The notes below the pieces were generated by a model that saw only the letters and a list, made by a program, of their open reading frames with translations, was not told where the DNA came from and ran no database searches. A stretch of DNA of 13,264 nt from a virus: the IMG/VR virus record IMGVR_UViG_3300045988_145246, one strand, 5' to 3'. The position numbers were made by a program, and so were the translations under genes. Positions 2,978-13,264 of this stretch are shown here, piece by piece; position 1 is the first letter of the stretch; each line of letters opens with the position of its first letter.

Positions 2978-3137
2978 TTTTATTCAATCTTCTTTCTTTT
3001 ATAAACTCTTTAAAGATTTTAGAATCATTAATCAAAATACCTATAGTACTGCTAACACTTCTGTTGTTCTCAAGAGCATACTGCTTTAATGCTGTTAGCA
3101 TTTCAATGTCAAAATTGATTGATGTAGTTGTTTTCAT
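2970..3137 (-). CDS. Unannotated 55-aa ribbon-helix-helix (Arc/MetJ/CopG-type) DNA-binding regulator (MKTTTSINFDIEMLTALKQYALENNRSVSSTIGILINDSKIFKEFIKERRLNKND).
   Basis: I verified the codon-by-codon translation of the reverse complement of 2970-3137. The order is an N-terminal beta-strand (SINFDIEM), then helix A (LTALKQYALENN), then NRSVSS..I helix B, which is the RHH signature (compare Arc ..NGRSVNSEI..). AAGGGGG RBS lies 9 nt upstream. Its TAA stop overlaps the ATG of the next gene. It is below the ORF-track cut-off. Confidence 0.6.
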   Translation of the reverse strand: MKTTTSINFDIEMLTALKQYALENNRSVSSTIGILINDSKIFKEFIKERRLNKND

Positions 3138-3153
3138 TTTTTGTCGCCCCCTT

Positions 3154-3408
3154 TTATTCCACTGTGATTATTTGATTATTTATTGTTTTAATGCTCAAAG
3201 ATAAAAATGAACAAATAAGATAATCATAGGAGGAATCGTTTTCAGAGTAAATTTCAAATTGTTCTGATGCAATATCATATGCTAGAATATATTCCACTGT
3301 ATTAAATTTAATTTCATTGATAGTTATAAATTTGTTAGTTTCCCACAAATTAAATAAATAATTTTTTAATTCATCTTCATCATAAAAGTTTTTTATATTA
3401 TTTTCCAT
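3154..3408 (-). CDS. 84-aa very acidic small early protein (net charge about -10, no Arg). Candidate DNA-mimic anti-defence protein.
   Basis: ORF with a strong RBS (AAAGGAGGTGATAAATA-ATG). About 17 D/E against 7 K. Early leftward operon, immediately upstream of the RHH regulator. Confidence 0.65.
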   Translation of the reverse strand: MENNIKNFYDEDELKNYLFNLWETNKFITINEIKFNTVEYILAYDIASEQFEIYSENDSSYDYLICSFLSLSIKTINNQIITVE

Positions 3409-3500
3409 TATTTATCACCTCCTTTCGTATTATCATACCATTCAGCTAAAATTATTAGCCAGATACCTGCACAAATTCCTAACAAAAATGAAGCTATCAT
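3408..3500 (-). CDS. Unannotated micro-ORF encoding a 30-aa single-TM peptide (MIASFLLGICAGIWLIILAEWYDNTKGGDK). ATGA-coupled to the upstream gene, and its TAATG junction overlaps the downstream gene.
   Basis: Hand-verified translation of the reverse complement of 3408-3500. The ATG overlaps the TGA of the 82-aa ORF. Its 3' end carries the RBS of the next gene. Confidence 0.4.
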   Translation of the reverse strand: MIASFLLGICAGIWLIILAEWYDNTKGGDK

Positions 3501-3745
3501 AATATCACCTTATAAGAATGATCAGTAGAGATACTTTTTATATGTGATGAAATTATACCACAGATAAAAGCCCCATCATTGGCATATATTTTAATAAAGT
3601 TGTTCGGTGTTTCGTCAGTAGTTTTATCAAAATAAATCTTTGTTTCATTAGTTAAAAATGATATCTCATTAATGTTTACAACTACCTCATTTTTCCATCC
3701 GTCTGTTAAAATTGCTACTAATTTTTCTCTAGTTTTGATTGTCAT
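3497..3745 (-). CDS. 82-aa hypothetical early protein, first gene of the leftward operon.
   Basis: ORF with RBS AAAGGAAA 8 nt before the ATG. Function not recognisable. Confidence 0.65.
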   Translation of the reverse strand: MTIKTREKLVAILTDGWKNEVVVNINEISFLTNETKIYFDKTTDETPNNFIKIYANDGAFICGIISSHIKSISTDHSYKVIL

Positions 3746-3798
3746 TGTATTATTTTCCTTTCTTTAACTACTTTGTTTTCTTGTTCCTTACAAGTATT

Positions 3799-3827
3799 AT
3801 AATATCACAAGTGCTATTAAATGTCAA
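3799..3827 (-). promoter_or_regulatory. Candidate leftward early promoter: -35 TTGACA (reverse complement of 3822-3827), 17-bp spacer, -10 TATTAT (reverse complement of 3799-3804). Alternatively, a perfect TATAAT (reverse complement of 3796-3801) at 20-bp spacing.
   Basis: Read on the minus strand. It lies in the 239-bp divergent intergenic region upstream of the 3745 start. It overlaps a 10-bp palindrome TATTATAATA (3795-3804). Confidence 0.4.
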
Positions 3828-3879
3828 TAACTTTCAACAACTTTTTAGAAAAAATTCTTTCCTTATTATATACACCAAA

Positions 3880-3940
3880 ACAAGCACTAAAATAAAAACC
3901 TAAATTTCCTATTGACAATAAACATAAACAATGCTATAAT
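3880..3940 (+). promoter_or_regulatory. Strong rightward sigma-A promoter: -35 TTGACA (3912-3917), 17-bp spacer, -10 TATAAT (3935-3940), with A-tract UP-element-like sequence upstream (3880-3911).
   Basis: Perfect consensus hexamers at optimal spacing. It is followed by a ~38-nt A-rich leader and an AAAGGAG RBS for the 3985 ORF. Confidence 0.75.
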
Positions 3941-3984
3941 AACAATGTAAACAAAAACAACACAAAATAAAAGGAGAACAAAGC

Positions 3985-4206
3985 ATGACAAGAACCATCA
4001 TTACAACACATTACAAAGCTACAACCCCATCCGGTGAAGTTGTAGAAGGTGAAGTTATCACCTCAATGTCAGGCAGACAGCTTGTAAAGTACATTAAAAA
4101 AGTACATGGCATTGAAGAATTTGAACTTTCAACTCACTACACTAGTGACAAGTATGAACTTTCTGATGAAGACTTCATCAGATATGCTACAAAAGTAGAA
4201 AAATAA
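3985..4206 (+). CDS. 73-aa small acidic hypothetical protein, first rightward gene.
   Basis: ORF with RBS AAAAGGAGAACAAAGC-ATG. No recognisable domain. Confidence 0.65.
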   Translation: MTRTIITTHYKATTPSGEVVEGEVITSMSGRQLVKYIKKVHGIEEFELSTHYTSDKYELSDEDFIRYATKVEK

Positions 4207-4264
4207 TTATAACTTTTTTTGCAGGTCTTTCCTAAATTACATCACTAAATAACTGAATAATATG

Positions 4265-4336
4265 CACTCATTATATGTAACCTCACAAAATCAAAAAATT
4301 TGCACGGTTTCTCATCAAGCTGTCATATAATGAGTG
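4265..4336. promoter_or_regulatory. Perfect 13-bp inverted repeat: CACTCATTATATG (4265-4277) and CATATAATGAGTG (4324-4336), separated by 46 bp. The right arm embeds a plus-strand TATAAT (4326-4331) and the left arm a minus-strand TATAAT. A TTGCAC -35-like hexamer sits at 4300-4305 with non-optimal 20-bp spacing.
   Basis: Found by direct reverse-complement comparison. Located between the stop of the 73-aa ORF and the RBS of the 119-aa ORF. Confidence 0.4.
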
Positions 4337-4363
4337 AAATAAAAATCAAAAAGGAGAACAAAT

Positions 4364-4723
4364 ATGGAAATCGTAAAAACAAACATCATGGACAACGAAT
4401 GGAACATGGATATCAGTTATGATATGTTTGAAAGTCCAGACCGTCAGTCAGTAAAAGACAACAGTGGGGAAATTGCAACAATCCAGAAATTTGCCATCTA
4501 TGAAGAGTATGATAATACTGGAAATGTTATGCGATTGTTAACAATGCTTACCATTACTGGTAATGTATATGTTACTTCTTCACCTGCATTTATCCGCACA
4601 TTTGAAAGAATTGCGGAACTAGCACAGCGTTCTCATTTAGACACATTCACAATCACATTCAGAAAAGAAAAAAGCAAAAACAACCGTGAGTACATGACAG
4701 CAATATATGTTAAAGAATCTTAA
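4364..4723 (+). CDS. 119-aa hypothetical protein.
   Basis: ORF with RBS AAAAAGGAGAACAAAT-ATG, nearly identical in context to the 3985 RBS. Its 3' end overlaps the ATPase gene start by 17 nt. Confidence 0.7.
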   Translation: MEIVKTNIMDNEWNMDISYDMFESPDRQSVKDNSGEIATIQKFAIYEEYDNTGNVMRLLTMLTITGNVYVTSSPAFIRTFERIAELAQRSHLDTFTITFRKEKSKNNREYMTAIYVKES

Positions 4724-5765
4724 ACTATACAACGAACAAGGATATCTAAATTTTAAGGGGATAGTCGAACAAGGCTATCCCTTTAATTTTATCTGGGGCG
4801 GTCGTGGAACAGGTAAAACTTTCGGGGCATTAGAATATTGCATAAAAAATAAACAAGTGTTCATGTACTCACGAACAAAACAGACACAGTTAGACATCAT
4901 CAAAAACCCCGAACTTACACCAGTTAAAGCAATCAATGATTACCGTCGCACCAATATCCAGCCATTTCCAATATCCAAAATCGCAGGGTTCTATAATTGT
5001 GTTGTAAATGAAGAAGGAAAGAACATTCCAGACGGATTACCTCTAGGATATGCGTCAGCTATCAGTACAATTTCCAACCTACGAGGATTCTCAGCAGAAG
5101 ACGTTAAAATCTGGATATATGATGAGTTCATTCCTCAGAAGGGGGATAAAGTACAACGTGGGGTAGCGGAATCGTTTCTGCATGGTTACGAAACAATGAA
5201 CCGTAACCGTGAGTTGCAGGGCAAACCCCCCATACAGGTGTTCTGTCTTTCCAACAGTGACAATGTAGGTTGTGAGCTATTCGCTCAGTTAGGATTAATC
5301 CGAAAAGTATCAGAAATGTCACGGAAAAAACGTGAAACATATTACATTAAAGACAGAGGTATCGCATTATATAATCTGTGTAACTCTCCTATTTCCAAAC
5401 TTAAGGCAGAAACCTCACTCTATAAAATGACAGGAAAAGACAGCGGTTTTGCACAACTGTCACTGGAAAATGAATTTTTCGACATGGATTTCTCAGACGT
5501 AAAACCCCAAAACTTAACTGAATATGTCCCACTTCTGTTCTTCGGGGAAATTGCAATATATACCCATAAGTCTCAGGAAAAACTCTATGTCTGCAAACAC
5601 AGACAAGGCACACCAGAGGAATGCTACAATGCAGTAACCGACAAAGCTATTTTGGCACTCAAACGGAAATACTCCTGGATATGGAATATATACTACCTCA
5701 ACGATCTCATCTATTTTTCCGACCTTGAATCGAAGTATCTACTTGACACTTATTTCCACATGTGA
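4707..5765 (+). CDS. DNA packaging (encapsidation) ATPase of the phi29 gp16 type.
   Basis: Arginine-containing Walker A FIWGGRGTGKTF (compare phi29 gp16 GARGIGKS, from memory). Walker B IWIYDEF. A downstream NRNRE...CLSN block that I recall as conserved in gp16 (NRERVRCICLSN). Similar size (352 aa). Confidence 0.85.
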   Translation: MLKNLKLYNEQGYLNFKGIVEQGYPFNFIWGGRGTGKTFGALEYCIKNKQVFMYSRTKQTQLDIIKNPELTPVKAINDYRRTNIQPFPISKIAGFYNCVVNEEGKNIPDGLPLGYASAISTISNLRGFSAEDVKIWIYDEFIPQKGDKVQRGVAESFLHGYETMNRNRELQGKPPIQVFCLSNSDNVGCELFAQLGLIRKVSEMSRKKRETYYIKDRGIALYNLCNSPISKLKAETSLYKMTGKDSGFAQLSLENEFFDMDFSDVKPQNLTEYVPLLFFGEIAIYTHKSQEKLYVCKHRQGTPEECYNAVTDKAILALKRKYSWIWNIYYLNDLIYFSDLESKYLLDTYFHM

Positions 5766-5887
5766 TACAATGTCTTTAGAGGGCAGACATATGTGTGCAG
5801 TTCAAGGACAACCGTCGGAAACGGTGAACGTGCGTTCGTCCAACGCAAAAGGCACACCTGCCCCACTAAATAAAAGGGGGTTGACCA
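5766..5887 (+). other. 122-nt GC-rich (~50% GC against ~33% genome) non-coding spacer with a dense, perfectly nested stem-loop architecture including a three-way junction. Candidate structured RNA or regulatory element.
   Basis: Stems atgtct/agacat (5770-5775 / 5785-5790) and gtgtgc/gcacac (5793-5798 / 5852-5857). Stem ggac/gtcc (5806-5809 / 5838-5841) encloses two abutting hairpins, accgt-cggaa-acggt (5811-5825) and gaac-gtgc-gttc (5826-5837). The overlapping 65-aa ORF (5725-5922) looks spurious. Confidence 0.3.
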
Positions 5888-6085
5888 ATGGACGTAAACA
5901 CATTCGCACAGTTATTCTCTAACTTAGGCATTCCAGTTGCATGCCTATGCGTGACTTTCTATCTGTGGTACACTGAGACACAGAACCACAAAGAAGAAAT
6001 GAACAAAATGACAGACGCTGTAAATAACAACACTCTGATTTTACAACGACTCCTTGACAAACTGGGAGAGGATGAAACAACATGA
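5888..6085 (+). CDS. Holin-like small membrane protein (BhlA/UviB-family architecture): short N-terminus, one TM segment (FAQLFSNLGIPVACLCVTFYLWY), then a charged coiled-coil tail.
   Basis: 65 aa. RBS AAGGGGG 7 nt upstream. Architecture and the FYLWY-TETQ-KEE region resemble BhlA as I remember it. ATGA-coupled to the next gene. Confidence 0.5.
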   Translation: MDVNTFAQLFSNLGIPVACLCVTFYLWYTETQNHKEEMNKMTDAVNNNTLILQRLLDKLGEDETT

Positions 6086-6390
6086 ATCTATCAGCAAAAA
6101 TCATCACAACAGACGAAATGCCGGAAACATATACCGACTTGCACCCACATCCAGAATTCTATGGTGAATGTGAAATCACAACCAAAAAGGATGATTTATT
6201 TTTACGCACACAGCCTACCACTGACTCAGAGGTAATCACCTCATTGAAAAAAGGTTCTTCATTTTTTTCTTTTGGCTTGTTCGATTCTTCCTTGAAATGG
6301 GTTCTAGGACAAGCCAAACTTCCTACAGGGGAAATGGTGGCAGGTTTCGCATACATACAATATCTCACACTGAAAGGAGAAAATAAATGA
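6082..6390 (+). CDS. 102-aa stand-alone bacterial SH3 (SH3b) cell-wall-binding domain protein with no catalytic domain.
   Basis: LFLRTQPTTDSEVITSLKKGSSF...W....AKLPTGE..GFAYIQYL matches the SH3b pattern (L.VRSGPSTSS.VIG.L.KG..V......GW.KI...G..GYV...YL). ATGA overlaps with both neighbours. Confidence 0.6.
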   Translation: MNLSAKIITTDEMPETYTDLHPHPEFYGECEITTKKDDLFLRTQPTTDSEVITSLKKGSSFFSFGLFDSSLKWVLGQAKLPTGEMVAGFAYIQYLTLKGENK

Positions 6391-6884
6391 CATTTGAGCA
6401 ATTAATTGCACTAACTTCAGCAGGTTTCACTAAAGCTGACATCATGGCACTGGCACAGACCCCAGCACCAGCACCAGCACCAGCACCAGCACCAGCACCA
6501 GCACCAGCACCAGCACCAGCACCAGCACCAGCAACAGGATTTATGCCACAGCCAGTTCAGCCGACAGGGATTGCACCAGCGACAGCAGGACAGCCAGCAC
6601 CAGTAATTCAGGGATTCGGTAATCCGATTAATCCACAGCAGGGTGTGCAGGAACAGTTCTATGCGGATGCAATGGCACAGAATGGTCAGCAGATGCAGCT
6701 GGACATGGGAAACATGGGGGTTGTTAAAAACAACGACCCATTAATCGAAACTATTAACAATCTTACAAGAGCAGTACAGGCTAATGGAATTGCTAACAGT
6801 CAGATGCCGACACAGGCACAGCCGACTGTTGATGATATGTTAGCTGAGATTATCAGACCTAGCGGTCAGAATGGGGGTAAATGA
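6387..6884 (+). CDS. 165-aa low-complexity protein: a 24-aa N-terminal helix, a (Pro-Ala)12 rigid linker, then a Q/G/P/N-rich disordered region. It sits where a scaffolding protein would be expected (just before the putative capsid gene).
   Basis: ORF with RBS AAAGGAG. ATGA junctions at both ends. GC-rich relative to the genome because of its P/A/G/Q composition. Confidence 0.7.
   Translation: MTFEQLIALTSAGFTKADIMALAQTPAPAPAPAPAPAPAPAPAPAPAPATGFMPQPVQPTGIAPATAGQPAPVIQGFGNPINPQQGVQEQFYADAMAQNGQQMQLDMGNMGVVKNNDPLIETINNLTRAVQANGIANSQMPTQAQPTVDDMLAEIIRPSGQNGGK
6462..6533 (+). repeat. Perfect tandem hexanucleotide repeat (CCAGCA)x12, in frame, encoding (PA)12.
   Basis: Counted directly: 72 bp of uninterrupted ccagca units. 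Confidence 0.95.
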
Positions 6885-8080
6885 TGGGTTCAACCGATAG
6901 TATTCTAAATAATATTCCAACTGTTTCCAATTTTAAATCAATAGAATTATTAAATTTTATCGTTAACCAGGCAACAGGAAAAACATCTCTGGAACGTGCA
7001 ACAACACAGGATTTTGTCAGTGTTGCAAATATAGCTTTGGATATTTCAGCAGATTCATTATTAAATGCTATATCACAAACATTATCACGCACTATTTTTT
7101 CCGTACGTCCTTACGAAGCAAAATTCAAGGGACTTATGAAAGATGAAATGTGTTTCGGAAACCATGTCAGAAAATTAAATATTGGAGATAAAGATTGGGA
7201 AAAAGATATACGTTATGATTTAGTCGATGGACAAAGTATTGACGATCAAATTGTATCTAATCCCAATATTTTACAGACAAACTTTTATGGTCAGAATGTG
7301 TATAGTAGACATTATACAATATACCGTGACCAACTGAATATTGCACTCTCCAACGAGGGAGAATTCCAGCGTTTTATTACAATGATTGTTCAGAACTGTT
7401 CAGATATGATTGAGCAGTGCCATGAAAGTACTGCAAGAATGACACTTGCAAACTTCATCGGGGGGAAAGTAAAAGGGGATGTTAACAACATTATCCATCT
7501 TGTTACAAAGTACAATGATATTGCAGGAACAGAACTTACCACTGATACAGTAAGACAGCCCACAAATTTTGTTCCATTTATCAAATGGGCTTTCGGATAT
7601 ATCAGTTACATTTCTGGAATGCTCACGGAGCGTTCTCAGAAATTTCATATTAATATTACTGGAAAAGAGATTTCCAGGCATACACCGCAGAATAGACAAA
7701 AACTGTATCTATTCAGTGAATATTTAAAAGACATGGATGCGAGTGTTCTGTCATCCGTATACAATGACAATTACCTGAAATGGGCAGACCATGAACAGGT
7801 TAATTTTTGGCAGTCAATTGATACACCAGACGGAATCAATGTATCTGCTAGTTATATGGGGGAAGACGGAAATGTTGTGTTAGACCCTACAGGAACAGCC
7901 ACGAGTAATATTTTCGGTGTTCTTTTTGATGAAGAGGCTATTGGTATTACAACATGTGGTCAGTGGTCTAGTGCCAGCCGGTTTAATGCTCGGGGTGGTT
8001 ACACTAACTTCTGGTATCACTTTAACGACAGATATTATAATGACTTTACGGAAAATGGTGTTGTTTTCCTACTGGATTAA
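6881..8080 (+). CDS. 399-aa putative major capsid protein (by size and synteny with phi29 gene 8, immediately after the scaffold-like gene).
   Basis: Largest protein-coding gene pair together with the next ORF. Its position precedes a tail-knob-like gene and a connector homologue. No motif-level proof. Confidence 0.45.
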   Translation: MMGSTDSILNNIPTVSNFKSIELLNFIVNQATGKTSLERATTQDFVSVANIALDISADSLLNAISQTLSRTIFSVRPYEAKFKGLMKDEMCFGNHVRKLNIGDKDWEKDIRYDLVDGQSIDDQIVSNPNILQTNFYGQNVYSRHYTIYRDQLNIALSNEGEFQRFITMIVQNCSDMIEQCHESTARMTLANFIGGKVKGDVNNIIHLVTKYNDIAGTELTTDTVRQPTNFVPFIKWAFGYISYISGMLTERSQKFHINITGKEISRHTPQNRQKLYLFSEYLKDMDASVLSSVYNDNYLKWADHEQVNFWQSIDTPDGINVSASYMGEDGNVVLDPTGTATSNIFGVLFDEEAIGITTCGQWSSASRFNARGGYTNFWYHFNDRYYNDFTENGVVFLLD

Positions 8081-8089
8081 GGAGTGTGT

Positions 8090-9556
8090 ATGGCTTTAAC
8101 AGTTGATTTTTTTCAGATTTCAAAACGGAAAAATAGTACATTTGTTCCGGCTGAATCAGCTATCCAGAAAACTGAAAATGCGGTTTTAAAAGAGGGGTGT
8201 GGGGTTTTATCCCCCACCCTTATTTTACATTTTCCTTATAACGCTAATCCGTATGTGTGGAATTTTGTGAGGATTAGAGAATTCAACCGTTTTTACTGGG
8301 TGGTTGAGTGGACTGTAGCGGATGGTGTCGGGAACTGGGAACTAAGCTTGAATGTTGATGTATTAGCAAGTTACAGGGATGCAATAATTCAGAAAGATTT
8401 CTATATTGAAAGATGTAGTGTTGCCAGTAATGGTGATATTATTGATTTAATGTATCCAGCAACTGCAAAGCAGTCTTTTGCCACCTCTAAACAAACAATG
8501 TGGGAGGATTCTAATTGGAGTGGTGGTACTTTTGTTTGCTGTATTCTGGGAAAGAATGGGCTTGTTAATTATTATCTTTTCAAAACAGAAGCATGGAAAA
8601 ATGTAATTAAAAGTATGTTTTCCTCCACTGACTGGATGAAAGTACCTATCACTGATATACCAGAAGCAGTGTTAAAAGCTGCGGTGAATCCAGGGCAGTA
8701 TATGCTTAAATGTTTCTGGTTGCCTATGACAGTTGAGACAAAGTTTATTCCTGCTAACATAGACATTGGATGGTGGGAGATTGCTATGACTGGACAGGCA
8801 GGAAATACCAGTTGTATTCTTGACAATCAGGCATTAATAAGTAAGACACTGACATTTGAAACGACCGCCCATCCTCAGAGTGTAAGAGGTAATTATCTTA
8901 ATAATTCGCCTTATACCAGAGGGGCATTATTTTCCCATGTGTTCGGGTATATGCCTATCGACATGAACAGTTTGGACGCTGGAAATTCTTTTAATGTAAG
9001 CGTGATTGTTGACCCTCGAACAGGTATTTGTGAATTAAGAGCATATCAGGGAAATACTACTCTTGCTTTAGCATCAAAAAATATTTCATGTCCGATAACC
9101 GTAGGAAACATTACTGATGATACTGTAAGTTTAGGTGCTACTGCAACAAGTGCTGTTAGTGGACTTGTTAACCTTATTTCTGGTGGTTTTGATGCTATTG
9201 GAAACGAAAATAAAAGTATTAATGGTGATGTACTTTCCAGAGAGTTTTTACCTACCGGTTTAGGGGCTAACATTGGTAACGCTCTTAACAGTCTCAGGGG
9301 AAAAAGCGTTGTGAAAAGCGGTGACGGTTCGCTGATTAATTCACTTGGAAGTTTATGGTTTGAGCAAGAATTTTCATACGTTGTTGATTATAACAACGGT
9401 ATGTTTGGGAAACCATATTGTAGCACAGGAAAAATGGCTGATTTAGGAACTGGATTCTATCTTATAAAAAATGGCTCTATAGGCTTGGAATTTGCGTTTG
9501 AAAGTGAAATCAATCAGGTTCGGGAATGGCTGGAAAGAGGTGTATACTATGCTTAA
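8090..9556 (+). CDS. 489-aa putative tail (knob/tube) protein, phi29 gp9-like by position. It has a long Gly/Ser/Ala/Asn-rich flexible loop near the C-terminus (SLGATATSAVSGLVNLISGGFDAIG...GLGANIGNALNSLRG), as the phi29 tail knob does.
   Basis: The likely start is the ATG at 8090 (RBS AAGGAG) rather than the GTG at 8084. Synteny and the loop composition are the only evidence. Confidence 0.4.
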   Translation: MALTVDFFQISKRKNSTFVPAESAIQKTENAVLKEGCGVLSPTLILHFPYNANPYVWNFVRIREFNRFYWVVEWTVADGVGNWELSLNVDVLASYRDAIIQKDFYIERCSVASNGDIIDLMYPATAKQSFATSKQTMWEDSNWSGGTFVCCILGKNGLVNYYLFKTEAWKNVIKSMFSSTDWMKVPITDIPEAVLKAAVNPGQYMLKCFWLPMTVETKFIPANIDIGWWEIAMTGQAGNTSCILDNQALISKTLTFETTAHPQSVRGNYLNNSPYTRGALFSHVFGYMPIDMNSLDAGNSFNVSVIVDPRTGICELRAYQGNTTLALASKNISCPITVGNITDDTVSLGATATSAVSGLVNLISGGFDAIGNENKSINGDVLSREFLPTGLGANIGNALNSLRGKSVVKSGDGSLINSLGSLWFEQEFSYVVDYNNGMFGKPYCSTGKMADLGTGFYLIKNGSIGLEFAFESEINQVREWLERGVYYA

Positions 9557-10217
9557 AAGTTCATATCAGGACAATGCATTACTATTCTATATACGAGGAC
9601 GGTCAACAACTGGTAATTATCCACCTGGAGATCCAGGTGTTGTTCCTACTGTTGGAGACTGGTTCTATAAAGTTACTGATACTACTGCTGGATATTTTGC
9701 TAAAAATGGAGCAGAACAGCAAAGAAATGCTGCTAATATTTACAAGTATTTTCATGAAACACTCGGATGGGATTCAGACAGCGTTTGTGCATTAATCGGA
9801 AATATGGACGCTGAATCTACACTCAATCCTGGGCTGATTGAAGTTGGTGGAGGTACTACATCCGCCGGGCCAGGTAGGGGACTTGTACAGTGGACTCCTG
9901 GTACAGACTTAACTAATCCTATGAAAGTTGTTTATGGTTCTGCTGATGACTGGTATGATGGCTCTAAACAATGCCGAGTTATATACGCAGAATTTGAGCA
10001 GTCCACAGGAAGTAAAAACTGGGGTATTGAGCCACAATGGTATAAGGGATATGGTTATAACCTCAGTTGGACTGAATGGGCTTTTAATCAACAGCACCAT
10101 AACATTGATTATTTAGTTGAAGCATTTTGTTGGGAGTACGAAAGACCAGGTGCACCTAGAATGGAAGAAAGAAAAGCAAGGGCACAGTACTGGGCGACGG
10201 TTTTTAGAAAGGGGTGA
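9549..10217 (+). CDS. 222-aa virion-associated peptidoglycan hydrolase, lysozyme/lytic-transglycosylase-like (phage tail-tip lysozyme type), with no signal peptide or wall-binding domain.
   Basis: NMDAESTLNPGLIEVGGG...GRGLVQWTPG resembles the ES...GL(M/V)Q catalytic signature of SLT/lysozyme-like folds. The ATG at 9549 (RBS AGAGG) overlaps the stop of the previous gene. It is embedded among tail genes. Confidence 0.5.
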   Translation: MLKSSYQDNALLFYIRGRSTTGNYPPGDPGVVPTVGDWFYKVTDTTAGYFAKNGAEQQRNAANIYKYFHETLGWDSDSVCALIGNMDAESTLNPGLIEVGGGTTSAGPGRGLVQWTPGTDLTNPMKVVYGSADDWYDGSKQCRVIYAEFEQSTGSKNWGIEPQWYKGYGYNLSWTEWAFNQQHHNIDYLVEAFCWEYERPGAPRMEERKARAQYWATVFRKG

Positions 10218-10223
10218 TTAATT

Positions 10224-11177
10224 TTGTACAATGGATATAACACAATTCCAGCCGGACAGGATTATATCAATTATTACAATGGTATATATAGTCCTAGCAC
10301 ATTGCATTGCAGAAATAATGCTTTACATGCTTATTTTGTGAAATATTTATTGCAGAAAGCAATGAGCGTTTTCGAGTGGGAGTTGCCCGAAACTTGGAGT
10401 GAGAACTACTTTTTGTACACCTTATATACATGGGGTTTTGTAGGAGTTCTTGAAACTGACCGATATGGAGTTATATGTCAGGGAGCAGGAATCGAAGGGT
10501 ATGATATCTATTATCAACCATCACATATTGTAGTAACTAACCCTTTGCTTATTGGGACAAAGCAATTAAGAATTGGTGTAGAATGCGAGGTTATTAGATT
10601 AACTCCTGATTGGTCTGGAATTATTGACATGATTAATTATTACGCAGACCAGATGGCAATTACAGCAGAAGCAACTACTATAAACATTATGAATTCTAAG
10701 CTGAGTTATGTATTCAGTGCCAGAAACAAAGCTGGTGCTGAGTCGTTGAAAAAGATTCTTGACCAGATAATGGGTGGTAATATTGCTGTTTTCTACGATG
10801 AAAAACTGAGACGTGCTAATCCAACAGGTGGTAGTGAAGAACCATGGGCTACTTTTGCACAAGATTTAAGAAGTAATTTCATTGCACCGGATTTACAGGA
10901 CAGCATGAGAAGATGGGAAGAACTTTTTAATAATGAGATTGGCATTGATAATGTTCGGAGTGACAAGAAAGAACGACTGATAACAGCAGAAGCGAATGCC
11001 AATAATGTTGAGTGTCGCTGTAAAGCTGAATTGTGGTTAGACACTTTGAAAAAATGTGTTGAAAAAGTCAACAAAATGTTTGGCACAAATATAAAAGTAG
11101 ATTGGAGACATGATGCTACTATGAAGGGGGGCGCTGATGATGGCGACAATGACACTAATGGGGCTGTTAACTTATGA
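10224..11177 (+). CDS. Head-tail connector (portal/upper collar) protein, phi29 gp10 family.
   Basis: 317 aa against 309 aa for phi29 gp10. The block FVKYLLQKAMSVFEWELPETW...WGFVGV matches my recollection of gp10 ...LAYQLFEWENLPPT...FGYVGF. KKERLITAEA matches KKERMVTDEV. Acidic C-terminus. TTG start with an AAGGGG RBS. Confidence 0.6.
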   Translation: MYNGYNTIPAGQDYINYYNGIYSPSTLHCRNNALHAYFVKYLLQKAMSVFEWELPETWSENYFLYTLYTWGFVGVLETDRYGVICQGAGIEGYDIYYQPSHIVVTNPLLIGTKQLRIGVECEVIRLTPDWSGIIDMINYYADQMAITAEATTINIMNSKLSYVFSARNKAGAESLKKILDQIMGGNIAVFYDEKLRRANPTGGSEEPWATFAQDLRSNFIAPDLQDSMRRWEELFNNEIGIDNVRSDKKERLITAEANANNVECRCKAELWLDTLKKCVEKVNKMFGTNIKVDWRHDATMKGGADDGDNDTNGAVNL

Positions 11178-11764: not shown

Positions 11765-13057
11765 ATGGCTTTTTGGAATAATTTTCCTTTTACCAATTTC
11801 CATGAACTTAATTTAGATTGGATTATTGGAAAAGTGAAAGCTTTGGAAACAGGTTTCATGAATGTAGTTAAGAAAGTAGATGATGCCTTAGCAGAAATCA
11901 AAAAAGAAGTAGATGATGCTATCCAGCAAATTCCGACAAAGGTAGATAATTTACTGACAGAATGGAAAGATGATGGTACACTTGGAACAATGATTGATAC
12001 CATTTACGGTGGACTTTCCTATCTCGATGTAATGAAAGATAAAACTATCTACGTTTTGGGAGACAGCTTGAGTGATGGGCAAGCACCCCGAAGCTGGGTG
12101 ACAGAATTTGAAAAATTGCTTGTCGGAAAAAACTGCCACGTTATGAATGGGGCACACTCGGGCGATACCATGGCAGAACAGTATGCCATTTTTGATAGGA
12201 ATATGACATTGCACCCTGAAAATGTACCAGATATTCTGATTGTATGGTGTGGTGTTAATGATGTTAAGAAACAGACAAGCTTAACTGATTTAGGGGCTAC
12301 CATGGATAGCATTAGAAACAAAATTCAGTCTATTAATGCAGCTTGTCAGGTTTACCTTTTTAGCACGTATAAAAATTACCGTGTTTTACCGGATCAGTGG
12401 ATTATTCCACAAACTGCATATTGGAGATATTTCAGTCAGTATGCACAGCAGAACGGATGGACTTTTGTGGACATGTTTGCTTATGCACCTGTAATCTCAC
12501 CAGAGACAGACCGTATGAGAGCAGAATTTTACGAAGAACAGAACAGCGGATATTTGCATTATACAGTGAGATATACTAAGATTCTTGCTAGATTTATTCT
12601 CAATGTTTTGTGTACTGGTATGCCGATTGCTTTAGGGGATTATTGGGAACGTGTCAATGGAAACTATCTGGATGGTGCAAAAATTTTTACAAACAAGGAA
12701 GAATTTGACCCGAACTTAAATGGTAGTCATATCCGATTCGGAACCCGGTTTGTGAAAATCAGAATTGCAGGAACATTTAAACCTAAAAACACATCTTCAT
12801 TACAGTATGTTAAAATTGGAAAGCTACCAGATTTTCTGATTCCAGCTTCTACAATTTATGGTCTTGCGTATCGAGGTGGTGGTTGGGGTTCTACTGGTGC
12901 AAACGCTACTTTTGGAACATTGGTAGATAGCGACGGTTCTCTGTTGGTACATCCACTTGCGAAAGAAGGAACAAGTTATACATCTACAACTATTTATTTT
13001 GACATTTACATTTTTGACCTTGCAACTGACTGGCAGAGGAAACAGACAGTTTCTTAA
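11765..13057 (+). CDS. 430-aa tail fibre/appendage-like protein with a central SGNH/GDSL esterase domain. The N-terminus is a coiled-coil virion anchor and the C-terminus a beta-rich domain.
   Basis: Block I YVLGDSLSDG (nucleophile Ser), block II NGAHSGDT, block III WCGVNDV, and block V His in SGYLHYT with the Asp position replaced by Ser. Perfect RBS AAGGAGGTATAAAT-ATG. It is the last gene before the right ITR, where phi29 has gp12. Confidence 0.7.
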   Translation: MAFWNNFPFTNFHELNLDWIIGKVKALETGFMNVVKKVDDALAEIKKEVDDAIQQIPTKVDNLLTEWKDDGTLGTMIDTIYGGLSYLDVMKDKTIYVLGDSLSDGQAPRSWVTEFEKLLVGKNCHVMNGAHSGDTMAEQYAIFDRNMTLHPENVPDILIVWCGVNDVKKQTSLTDLGATMDSIRNKIQSINAACQVYLFSTYKNYRVLPDQWIIPQTAYWRYFSQYAQQNGWTFVDMFAYAPVISPETDRMRAEFYEEQNSGYLHYTVRYTKILARFILNVLCTGMPIALGDYWERVNGNYLDGAKIFTNKEEFDPNLNGSHIRFGTRFVKIRIAGTFKPKNTSSLQYVKIGKLPDFLIPASTIYGLAYRGGGWGSTGANATFGTLVDSDGSLLVHPLAKEGTSYTSTTIYFDIYIFDLATDWQRKQTVS

Positions 13058-13135: not shown

Positions 13136-13264
13136 GAACAAAATGGACTAAAATGCTGTTCGCCCAGGAGAGACAAATTGGCTCGAGTGTGTGCGTGACA
13201 GACAGACACTGGTGTCCGTGGGGGAAAGACAAATGTCCGCCGTACACGGATACCTATATAGGCG
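13134..13264. repeat. Right inverted terminal repeat, partner of 1-131. The hairpin seen at the left end is degraded here (gtcttt instead of gtccgt).
   Basis: Direct comparison of the reverse complement with the left end. Identical landmarks include ctcgag at 79-84 and 13181-13186, and tcctgggcgaacag. Confidence 0.9.

Follow-up and report, generated by a model that had tools for sequence, protein, structure and literature searches.

The locus and its predicted transcript

The stretch of viral DNA analyzed here, IMG/VR record IMGVR_UViG_3300045988_145246, comprises 13,264 nucleotides (nt) and is referred to as the window. On the basis of its 109-nt terminal inverted repeats (1-109 and 13156-13264), which are 92% complementary, it is a complete linear phage genome. 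The element of interest is a structured RNA predicted to be transcribed from a 122-nt non-coding gap (5766-5887) between two plus-strand genes, one for a gp16-type DNA packaging ATPase (open reading frame (ORF) 4707-5765) and one for a 65-amino-acid (aa) protein with a hydrophobic N-terminal segment (ORF 5888-6085), the first of the structural operon. An earlier note, made from the sequence of the window alone, had drawn attention to this gap as a candidate structured RNA, possibly resembling the prohead or packaging RNA (pRNA) of phage phi29. The gap is present as described there, and its guanine-plus-cytosine (GC) content is indeed 50%, although that of the window is 36.4% and not the ~33% given for the genome. 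The ATPase is assigned by its match to the PHROG 2150 terminase family (E = 2.6e-24) and by PF05894 in its homologues; the family profile also matches phi29 gp16 (7JQQ) with an E-value of 9e-18.

Transcription of the gap can be traced to a plus-strand sigma-70-type promoter at 5743-5771, which the earlier note had missed. It consists of a -35 box TTGACA (5743-5748), a 17-nt spacer, and an extended -10 box TGaTACAAT (5763-5771), agrees with the consensus at 11 of 12 positions, and overlaps the ATPase gene such that the TGA stop codon (5763-5765) supplies the TG of the extended -10 box. Sequences of the form TTGACA-N16-18-TANAAT occur twice in the whole window, this promoter included, with 0.13 expected. 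Nearly all related lineages keep TTGACA with a spacing of 16-18 nt, and their -10 box ends 1-10 nt upstream of the first helix of the RNA (the A helix, described below).

A promoter this close to consensus places the transcription start at about 5777-5779, so that most of the spacer would form the 5′ end of an RNA. The predicted structured RNA of ~92 nt covers 5777-5868 on the plus strand, its 5′ end being set by the promoter and its 3′ end by the end of the outer helix. It is followed by a variable A-rich linker and the ribosome-binding site (RBS) of the next gene (5869-5887, with GGGGG at 5876-5880), the sequence after the A helix being CACUAAAUAAAA. Taken alone, 5777-5868 has a minimum free energy (MFE) structure of -29.7 kcal/mol that is identical to the consensus fold, and R1, a covariance model built on three clades of relatives, scores it at 82.7 bits. 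A tRNA and tmRNA scan with ARAGORN found nothing at the gap.

Conserved fold

The RNA folds into a terminal A helix that opens into a three-way junction with two arms, one made of a C helix, a bulge, and an E hairpin, and the other of a D hairpin. The pairing and covariation figures for individual helices are drawn from 28 distinct sequences of five clades aligned to the model.

The A helix is built from two 6-bp segments. In the outer one, GGGCAG (5781-5786) pairs with CTGCCC (5858-5863), perhaps with three more pairs between 5777-5779 and 5866-5868; across the window clade and the 67%-identity clade, this segment measures 6-12 bp. A bulge confined to the 5′ side sets off the inner segment. 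In the window, it is the 6-nt ACAUAU (5787-5792), and in the 67%-identity clade, it is kept at 6-7 nt with an ACAAA-like sequence. By analogy, it may correspond to the CCA bulge of phi29 helix A. The inner segment, GTGTGC (5793-5798) with GCACAC (5852-5857), is 96% paired, and five of its six pairs have changed on both sides.

The first arm starts with a C helix of only 4 bp, GTTC (5800-5803) with GAAC (5826-5829), which is 100% paired, covaries at two of four pairs, and takes the forms GUUC/GAAC, GCAC/GUGC, GUAC/GUAC, and GGGC/GCCC across relatives. A 7-nt bulge, AAGGACA (5804-5810), again on the 5′ side only, separates it from the E hairpin (5811-5825), which has the stem ACCGT/ACGGT (5811-5815 with 5821-5825) and the loop CGGAA (5816-5820). 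The E stem is 98.5% paired and covaries at all five positions, while its loop is invariant in all 28 sequences and reads CAGAA or UCGAA in distant lineages. The second arm, the D hairpin (5831-5847), combines the stem TGCGTT/AACGCA (5831-5836 with 5842-5847) with the loop CGTCC (5837-5841); its stem is 92% paired with covariation at three of six pairs, and the loop-closing pair is U-A or U·G. In the window RNA, 1 nt links C to D, and 4 nt lead from D back to A. The latter form the purine-rich junction strand AAAG (5848-5851), which measures 3-6 nt in all lineages.

In addition to these helices, GGAC in the C/E bulge (5806-5809) is complementary to GUCC in the D loop (5838-5841). Counted as five pairs, this helix is 88-91% paired and covaries at three of five positions, and its four core pairs are 100% paired. 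At least eight complementary forms occur across lineages: GGAC/GUCC, AACCA/UGGUU, AGUCA/UGACU, GCACA/UGUGC, GUAC/GUAC, GGGUAA/UUACCC, GCUA/UAGC, and AUCC/GGAU.

This fold departs from the nested one that had been drawn by eye in the earlier note. All helices named there can be formed together (-23.7 kcal/mol), but two of the five are wrong. The GTGTGC/GCACAC stem and the first inner hairpin hold as pairings. The proposed hairpin at 5770-5790, on the other hand, shares bases with the -10 box and the start site, is incompatible with the conserved outer helix, and is not itself conserved, and among relatives the second inner hairpin (GAAC/GTTC) is paired in just 64% of cells. The partner of GAAC is instead the GTTC that lies upstream, and the true third arm is TGCGTT/AACGCA. 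The complementarity of GGAC and GTCC, which had been taken for a nested stem, is genuine and covarying; because the C helix and the D hairpin are both supported and both cross it, it represents a pseudoknot or an intermolecular pairing.

Comparative support

Searches anchored on the ATPase returned 87 related loci with ATPase identities between 40% and 100%. A gap and then a gene of ~65 aa come after the ATPase gene in nearly all of these loci. A shared fold is visible by eye in the gap sequences, and single-sequence MFE prediction yields the same fold independently in most relatives. From three clades aligned by MAFFT on sequence only, RNAalifold predicts the A/C/E/D fold, and 15 of the 20 pairs are compensatory. 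In the MAFFT alignment, 94.4% of cells are paired (27-43% when the partners are slid), 18 of 28 pairs have changed on both sides, and the covariation score is 0.60 (at most 0.13 when slid). The 28-sequence alignment gives similar values, with 95.2% of cells paired as opposed to 30-43% for slid partners, a covariation score of 0.73 versus at most 0.15, and 18 of 26 pairs changed on both sides, the bulge/D-loop pairing included. Since it was fitted to the model, this alignment leans towards the structure; the MAFFT and RNAalifold results are free of that bias. When all clades were aligned with MAFFT, gaps were misplaced in the E hairpin of two of them, and that alignment was replaced by the three-clade and the model-based ones. 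The compensatory changes in homologous spacers by which the earlier note had proposed to check the fold are present in five helices.

The three-clade covariance model finds two clades on which it was not trained at E-values of 1e-13 to 1e-18 and the GenBank human faecal contigs MT836263, MT835998, and MT836115 at 2e-10 to 9e-6, with one match per genome. In the 46-47%-identity clade, it matches weakly, and always at the same place, a larger version with a four-way junction. The model falls short of the cultured Amedibacillus phage AD70P2, which nevertheless shows the same RNA architecture after its packaging gene, both by eye and by MFE. The RNA is thereby present in lineages whose ATPase is as little as ~30% identical.

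When 185,579 bacterial and archaeal genomes were scanned for a sequence pattern of the RNA, 32 matches came up, one of which is a true RNA, and no chromosomal copies were found. The true match (L139, 5800-5945) lies on JAEEKA010000030.1, a 13.2-kb phage-sized contig binned in an Oscillospiraceae metagenome-assembled genome. It scores 53.8 bits with R1, is of the GGAC/GUCC type, and is followed by a long extra hairpin. The binning of this contig is a weak hint that Oscillospiraceae are hosts.

Within the window clade, 10.9% of sites vary in the RNA, compared to 66% and 52% at the third codon positions of the flanking genes and 63% in the linker to the RBS. As judged from these sequence comparisons, the RNA is under purifying selection at the nucleotide level. 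The only ORF that overlaps the gap (5725-5922) has a TTG start and no RBS, as the earlier note had observed, and begins upstream of the -10 box. Its reading frame and peptide differ between clades, the compensatory changes are non-synonymous, and most clades have no ORF across the RNA that starts with ATG and reaches 50 aa. Across the alignment, 33 cells are G·U and 13 are A·C when read on the plus strand; together with the promoter, this imbalance assigns the RNA to the plus strand and argues against a signal in duplex DNA. On the strength of covariation, purifying selection, and its own conserved promoter, the gap holds a real RNA gene (5777-5868, served by the promoter at 5743-5771), structured and strongly conserved, and the earlier proposal of a structured RNA is strongly supported.

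This RNA is constantly flanked by the promoter on one side and the start of the structural operon on the other, and a homologous small gene comes next in every lineage examined. In genomes of the MT835998 type, the ATPase gene belongs to the polymerase operon on the other strand (9375-10439), and the RNA lies at 1053-1117 (within L096 1015-1125 of MT835998.1), ~1 kb from the left genome end. There, too, it is preceded by a promoter, TTGACA-17-TGaTACTAT, and followed by the small membrane-protein gene with which the structural operon begins, and a T-run comes immediately after its GC-rich A helix. A genetic tie of the RNA to the ATPase gene was rejected on account of the 8 kb that part them in these genomes, and with it falls the argument from position, immediately after the ATPase gene, that had been made for a packaging role.

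The loci of the 46-47%-identity clade (L033-L073) carry an enlarged RNA ~45-215 nt after the ATPase stop codon (e.g., L033 3592-3760), in which an extra hairpin in the C/E arm creates a four-way junction and the E loop reads UYGGGAG. A further conserved hairpin (loop GUGUCACAGC) and a T-run follow, reminiscent of Domain II of phi29 pRNA. In these loci, as well as in L011 and L014-L017, which are divergent clades, one or two copies of a perfect 18-bp palindrome, ATGTTTCACGTGAAACAT, stand between the RNA and the next RBS; it resembles a binding site for a regulator or a conserved hairpin, and the window does not contain it. The palindrome TTTCACGTGAAA of relatives is absent from the window.

Comparison with phi29 pRNA

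Reviews present the pRNA as a peculiarity of phi29 and its Bacillus relatives (PMC5066667, PMC11476376), and a 2025 survey, which used phi29, GA1, and DLc1 as seeds for covariance-model searches with Infernal, contributed a further 12 pRNAs (PMC12670572). Complementarity between bulge and D loop is the hallmark of pRNA self-assembly, and the paired sequences are reported to differ between lineages while staying complementary (PMC5066667, PMC12670572).

On phi29, the Rfam consensus (RF00044) runs from the A helix through the C helix, the 5′ bulge, the E hairpin, the 3′ strand of C, UUU, and the D hairpin with its 5-nt loop to the 3′ strand of A. The RNAs of the window and its relatives (window-type RNAs) have the identical order of A helix, three-way junction, C, 5′ bulge, E, and D. 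Further likenesses are an A helix formed by the 5′ and 3′ ends with a bulge on its 5′ side, a bulge that abuts the E helix while the 3′ strands of E and C are continuous, and a 5-nt D loop closed by U·G or U-A. Bulge and D loop form covarying Watson-Crick complements that change from lineage to lineage, and one window-type clade even has AACC(A)/(U)GGUU, as does phi29. Both RNAs keep their shape with poorly conserved primary sequence, and both have their own sigma-A-type promoter. The genomes match in kind as well, with the window being that of a small protein-primed podovirus that encodes a phi29-type capsid protein, connector, and gp16 ATPase.

The two RNAs also differ. The core of window-type RNAs spans ~65-95 nt, whereas that of phi29 spans 117-120 nt, and the invariant E loop CGGAA is peculiar to the window type. 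In phi29, the pRNA is transcribed early, at the left end of the genome, and is terminated, whereas the window RNA heads the structural operon and is predicted to be co-transcribed with it.

A second pRNA-shaped RNA in Clostridium phages

The cultured Clostridium phages CI461P1 and CI55P1 and 13 relatives (also L095 and L097-L109) carry an RNA of ~105 nt with its own promoter, located in CI461P1 at L094 1286-1434 (OP172763 ~9887-10035, minus strand). It lies between the PolB and ATPase genes and is 99.6% paired, with nine compensatory pairs as opposed to zero or one for slid partners. Its A helix has ~22 bp with bulges, its C helix has 9 bp, UU separates C from D, and no linker separates D from A. 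A 6-nt bulge with ACCA is complementary to UGGU in the D loop CUGGUAA, and a T-run comes next.

This CI-type RNA shares with phi29 pRNA its layout, helix lengths, and junction strands, and its phage retains the basic connector N-terminus. These features make it a candidate pRNA, even though the Rfam pRNA model does not match the RNA of CI461P1. With the window-type RNA it has in common the same topology, a bulge complementary to the D loop, and a setting in human-gut phi29-like phages, where it is promoter-proximal, beside the ATPase gene, and before the same small membrane-protein gene. It is unlike the window type in its phi29 dimensions, in the T-run that follows it, and in lying upstream rather than downstream of the ATPase gene, and the two have no detectable sequence or covariance-model similarity. 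A pRNA-shaped RNA in gut phi29-like phages nonetheless raises the plausibility that the window RNA is a reduced relative or an analogue of pRNA. In the literature searched, no description of either RNA was found.

Proposed role and alternatives

The reading put forward here is that the window RNA is a miniaturized prohead or packaging RNA that forms rings by bulge/D-loop pairing in trans and docks the gp16-type ATPase, to which a probability of roughly 0.5 is assigned. The strong host-type promoter over the ATPase stop codon would start the RNA at ~5777 on the plus strand. The transcript would fold into the A helix, three-way junction, C helix/7-nt bulge/E hairpin arm, and D hairpin arm, and would be freed from the long late transcript by processing in the A-rich linker. 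The bulge of one RNA would then pair with the D loop of the next to give a ring on the portal vertex of the prohead, whose A helices could serve as a docking platform for the ATPase in DNA packaging. Pairing in trans rather than in cis is suggested on steric grounds, because linker lengths leave little slack to close the helix within one molecule: the paired bulge bases lie 0-1 nt from the E helix, the D loop is wholly used, the C/D linker has 1-2 nt, and the C helix has 4 bp.

A number of observations weigh against this assignment, and they start with the RNA as such. The 122-nt gap folds at -35.2 kcal/mol, which is no better than dinucleotide shuffles (z = -1.15 on the plus strand and -1.53 on the minus strand), and the predicted transcript (5777-5868) is likewise not significant at z = -1.8. 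The folding-energy comparison proposed in the earlier note hence shows no difference, and energy is not taken as evidence for the RNA. Shape alone in one sequence is weak evidence as well, given that a purpose-built topology descriptor (A/C/bulge/E/D with bulge-loop complementarity of at least 4 nt) returned ~60 chance matches in 13 kb and was dropped. The Rfam scan, also proposed earlier, found no family at the locus; the Phage_pRNA model, which scores phi29 itself at 145 bits as a positive control, had no match at E ≤ 10 in the window, 10 relatives, AD70P2, MT835998, or CI461P1. Conversely, the covariance model of the window-type RNA does not find phi29 pRNA. The C helix has 4 bp rather than 9, the A helix has 9-18 bp rather than ~25, and the long junction strand joins D to A (4-5 nt), whereas in phi29 it is the UUU between C and D.

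Other difficulties lie in the proteins and in transcription. The connectors of the window (MYNGYNTIPAGQDY...) and of AD70P2 (MEVFSLNKHG...) lack the basic N-terminal cluster seen in phi29 (MARKRSNTYRS) and CI461P1 (MSSKRRKIKA); the window protein has in its place a Tyr/Asn-rich, non-basic extension of ~30 aa. In phi29, this basic N-terminus is the pRNA-binding segment. A terminator scan of 5766-5887 found no terminator-like site, that is, no GC-rich hairpin with a U-run, so in the window clade the late mRNA would carry the RNA at its 5′ end, and release of the RNA would need processing in the A-rich linker. Some other lineages have a T-run, or an extra hairpin and a T-run, directly after the RNA, an observation in favor of a transcription unit of its own. 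The RNA stays at the head of the structural operon and not by the ATPase gene, a pattern that a cis-acting leader would produce equally. Finally, the phi29-like phage asccphi28 has been reported without evidence for a pRNA (PMC7823558). Of the earlier suggestion of a pRNA-like element, the architecture and the company of phi29-type capsid, connector, and gp16 proteins stand, while the Rfam match, the helix lengths, and the basic connector N-terminus do not.

The main alternative, judged less likely, is a leader RNA that acts in cis on the late (lysis and structural) operon, with the bulge/D-loop pairing made within one molecule. Such a leader could protect the 5′ end of the mRNA, alter RNA polymerase or termination by put-like antitermination or attenuation, or bind a protein that times late expression. 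It would account for the invariable placement of the RNA directly after a consensus promoter and before the gene that opens the structural operon, even in MT835998-type genomes. In the window clade, nothing parts the RNA from the downstream mRNA, and constant position and co-transcription fit a leader equally well. The start site lies 0-4 nt from the A helix, which suits a 5′ stabilizer in Firmicutes, and T-runs after the RNA in several lineages are possible regulated terminators; a simple hairpin, however, would suffice for stabilization. The absence of a terminator-like site in the window argues against the attenuator that the earlier note had listed among its alternatives. The non-basic connector also agrees better with a leader.

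A leader would be expected to communicate with the gene it controls, but no conserved expression platform is apparent: 63% of sites in the linker and RBS vary, and the distance to the start codon ranges from ~20 to ~230 nt. Sequestration of the RBS by the 3′ strand of the A helix (CCCC or CCCUC) was considered as a conserved switch and rejected. By eye, this complementarity fits the window clade and the 50%-identity clade and is inconsistent elsewhere, even in L004 inside the window clade. The separate hairpin and T-run and the conserved palindromes before the next gene in the 46-47%-identity clade suggest that the RNA is a separate unit, and the little slack for a 4-5-bp bulge/D-loop helix would strain its formation in cis. 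No known leader family was matched in Rfam searches of the window and relatives.

Two known classes of cis-acting RNA come closest. The put RNAs of phage HK022 are structured RNAs of ~70-90 nt that directly follow a phage promoter and precede a long operon; they are made of two stem-loops, with no three-way junction and no covarying loop/bulge pairing. Compared with put and other promoter-proximal leaders, terminator-like sites follow the RNA in some relatives, with none in the window, and there is no sequence or family match. The purine riboswitch, which resides in the 5′ untranslated region, has a three-way junction closed by its P1 helix, and its two arms, about equally high, are joined by distal Watson-Crick contacts. 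In the RNA described here, the C arm has 4-5 bp and the D arm 4-6 bp, a similarity in height that recalls riboswitch folds with side-by-side arms. Yet the junction and bulge nucleotides vary, unlike those of a ligand pocket, no Rfam riboswitch is matched, and the contact is a full helix of 4-6 bp that takes up the whole D loop.

Quite improbable is a trans-acting phage small RNA or ribonucleoprotein scaffold unrelated to packaging, for instance one that sequesters a host protein or RNase, with a convergent likeness to pRNA. A strong promoter of its own, one copy per genome, and the retention of shape over sequence agree with such a role, and the invariant CGGAA loop suggests recognition by a protein. 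Against this, no specific target suggests itself, relatives do not share an extended single-stranded seed region, and the occurrence of a pRNA architecture beside phi29-type motor proteins is left unexplained.

A signal at the DNA level, be it an operator with inverted repeats or a packaging or replication signal, as the earlier note had also entertained, is very improbable. The repeat ATGTCT-N9-AGACAT across the -10 box and the start site (5770-5790) is a possible operator, but its conservation ends with the clade, and in L006 it is broken. The 33 plus-strand G·U cells amount to A·C mismatches on the other strand, symmetric compensatory changes without conservation of half-site sequences are typical of RNA helices, and branched, crossing pairings are meaningless in duplex DNA. 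That the gap is functionless, whether as a spacer that is rich in GC by chance or as part of the coding sequence for the 65-aa ORF at 5725-5922, would suit the modest folding energy and the open frame but is next to negligible in view of the covariation and selection, the missing RBS, and the unconserved peptide.

Genome and neighboring genes

The window phage presumably replicates by protein priming, and a gene for a protein-primed-type DNA polymerase is located at 481-2544 on the minus strand. The window further encodes a phi29-type major capsid protein (6881-8080; PF25622 Phi29_MCP, E = 4.1e-21) and a gp10-type connector with a TTG start (10224-11177; PF05352 GP10, E = 3.8e-24). The 65-aa protein at the head of the structural operon, which may be holin-like, has no match in a Pfam search and is weakly similar to a 72-aa protein of CI461P1 (pairwise E = 4e-5). 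The 102-aa protein encoded next (6082-6390) gives a weak SH3_3 match and may bind the cell wall, and the last large gene (11765-13057) carries a GDSL lipase/acylhydrolase domain (E = 4e-13).

Two divergent consensus promoters with TG, TTGACA-17-TATTAT at 3799-3827 (minus strand) and TTGACA-17-TATAAT at 3912-3940 (plus strand), serve the leftward polymerase operon and the rightward operon that ends in the ATPase gene, respectively. Together with the promoter of the RNA, they are the three strongest promoter matches in the scanned stretch from 3000 to 7000. Within the first 30 codons of the ATPase gene, a strong terminator-like hairpin on the plus strand (4753-4796; a 14-bp stem, then TTTTATCTGG) is overlapped by a weak match to Rfam sraA and may be an attenuator of ATPase expression. 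In MT835998.1, a long, near-perfect hairpin (L096 10916-10990) with weak matches to Rfam miRNA families lies between the operon of the ATPase and a 116-aa protein and the polymerase gene.

A near-identity DNA search of GenBank phages gave no match to the window. Its closest GenBank relatives are unannotated phage contigs from human faeces, and the closest isolates are the Amedibacillus phages AD70P2 and AD70P3, which are filed under Guelinviridae and have ~30% ATPase identity.

Implications

The window RNA belongs to an RNA family in abundant human-gut phages that have homologous motor proteins and include cultured isolates. Tentatively, and at a little under even odds, prohead RNAs would extend beyond the Bacillus phages to a large group of phi29-like podoviruses of 12-15 kb that infect human-gut Firmicutes, among them AD70P2 and, with an RNA closer to that of phi29, CI461P1 and CI55P1. 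The form in the window would be miniaturized to ~85-90 nt, its C helix reduced to 4 bp and its A helix shortened, and would dock on a connector without a basic N-terminus. If so, the interface between RNA and prohead would differ from that of phi29, and these RNAs would show how small a packaging RNA can be. The cultured isolates would make it possible to test how widely RNA-dependent packaging has spread, which features of pRNA are essential, and how the RNA-prohead interface has evolved. Such RNAs would also add short, natural, self-assembling three-way-junction scaffolds to those at hand for RNA nanotechnology. If the RNA is instead a cis-acting leader, it would represent a new class of control element for phage late operons and would still be a new RNA family.

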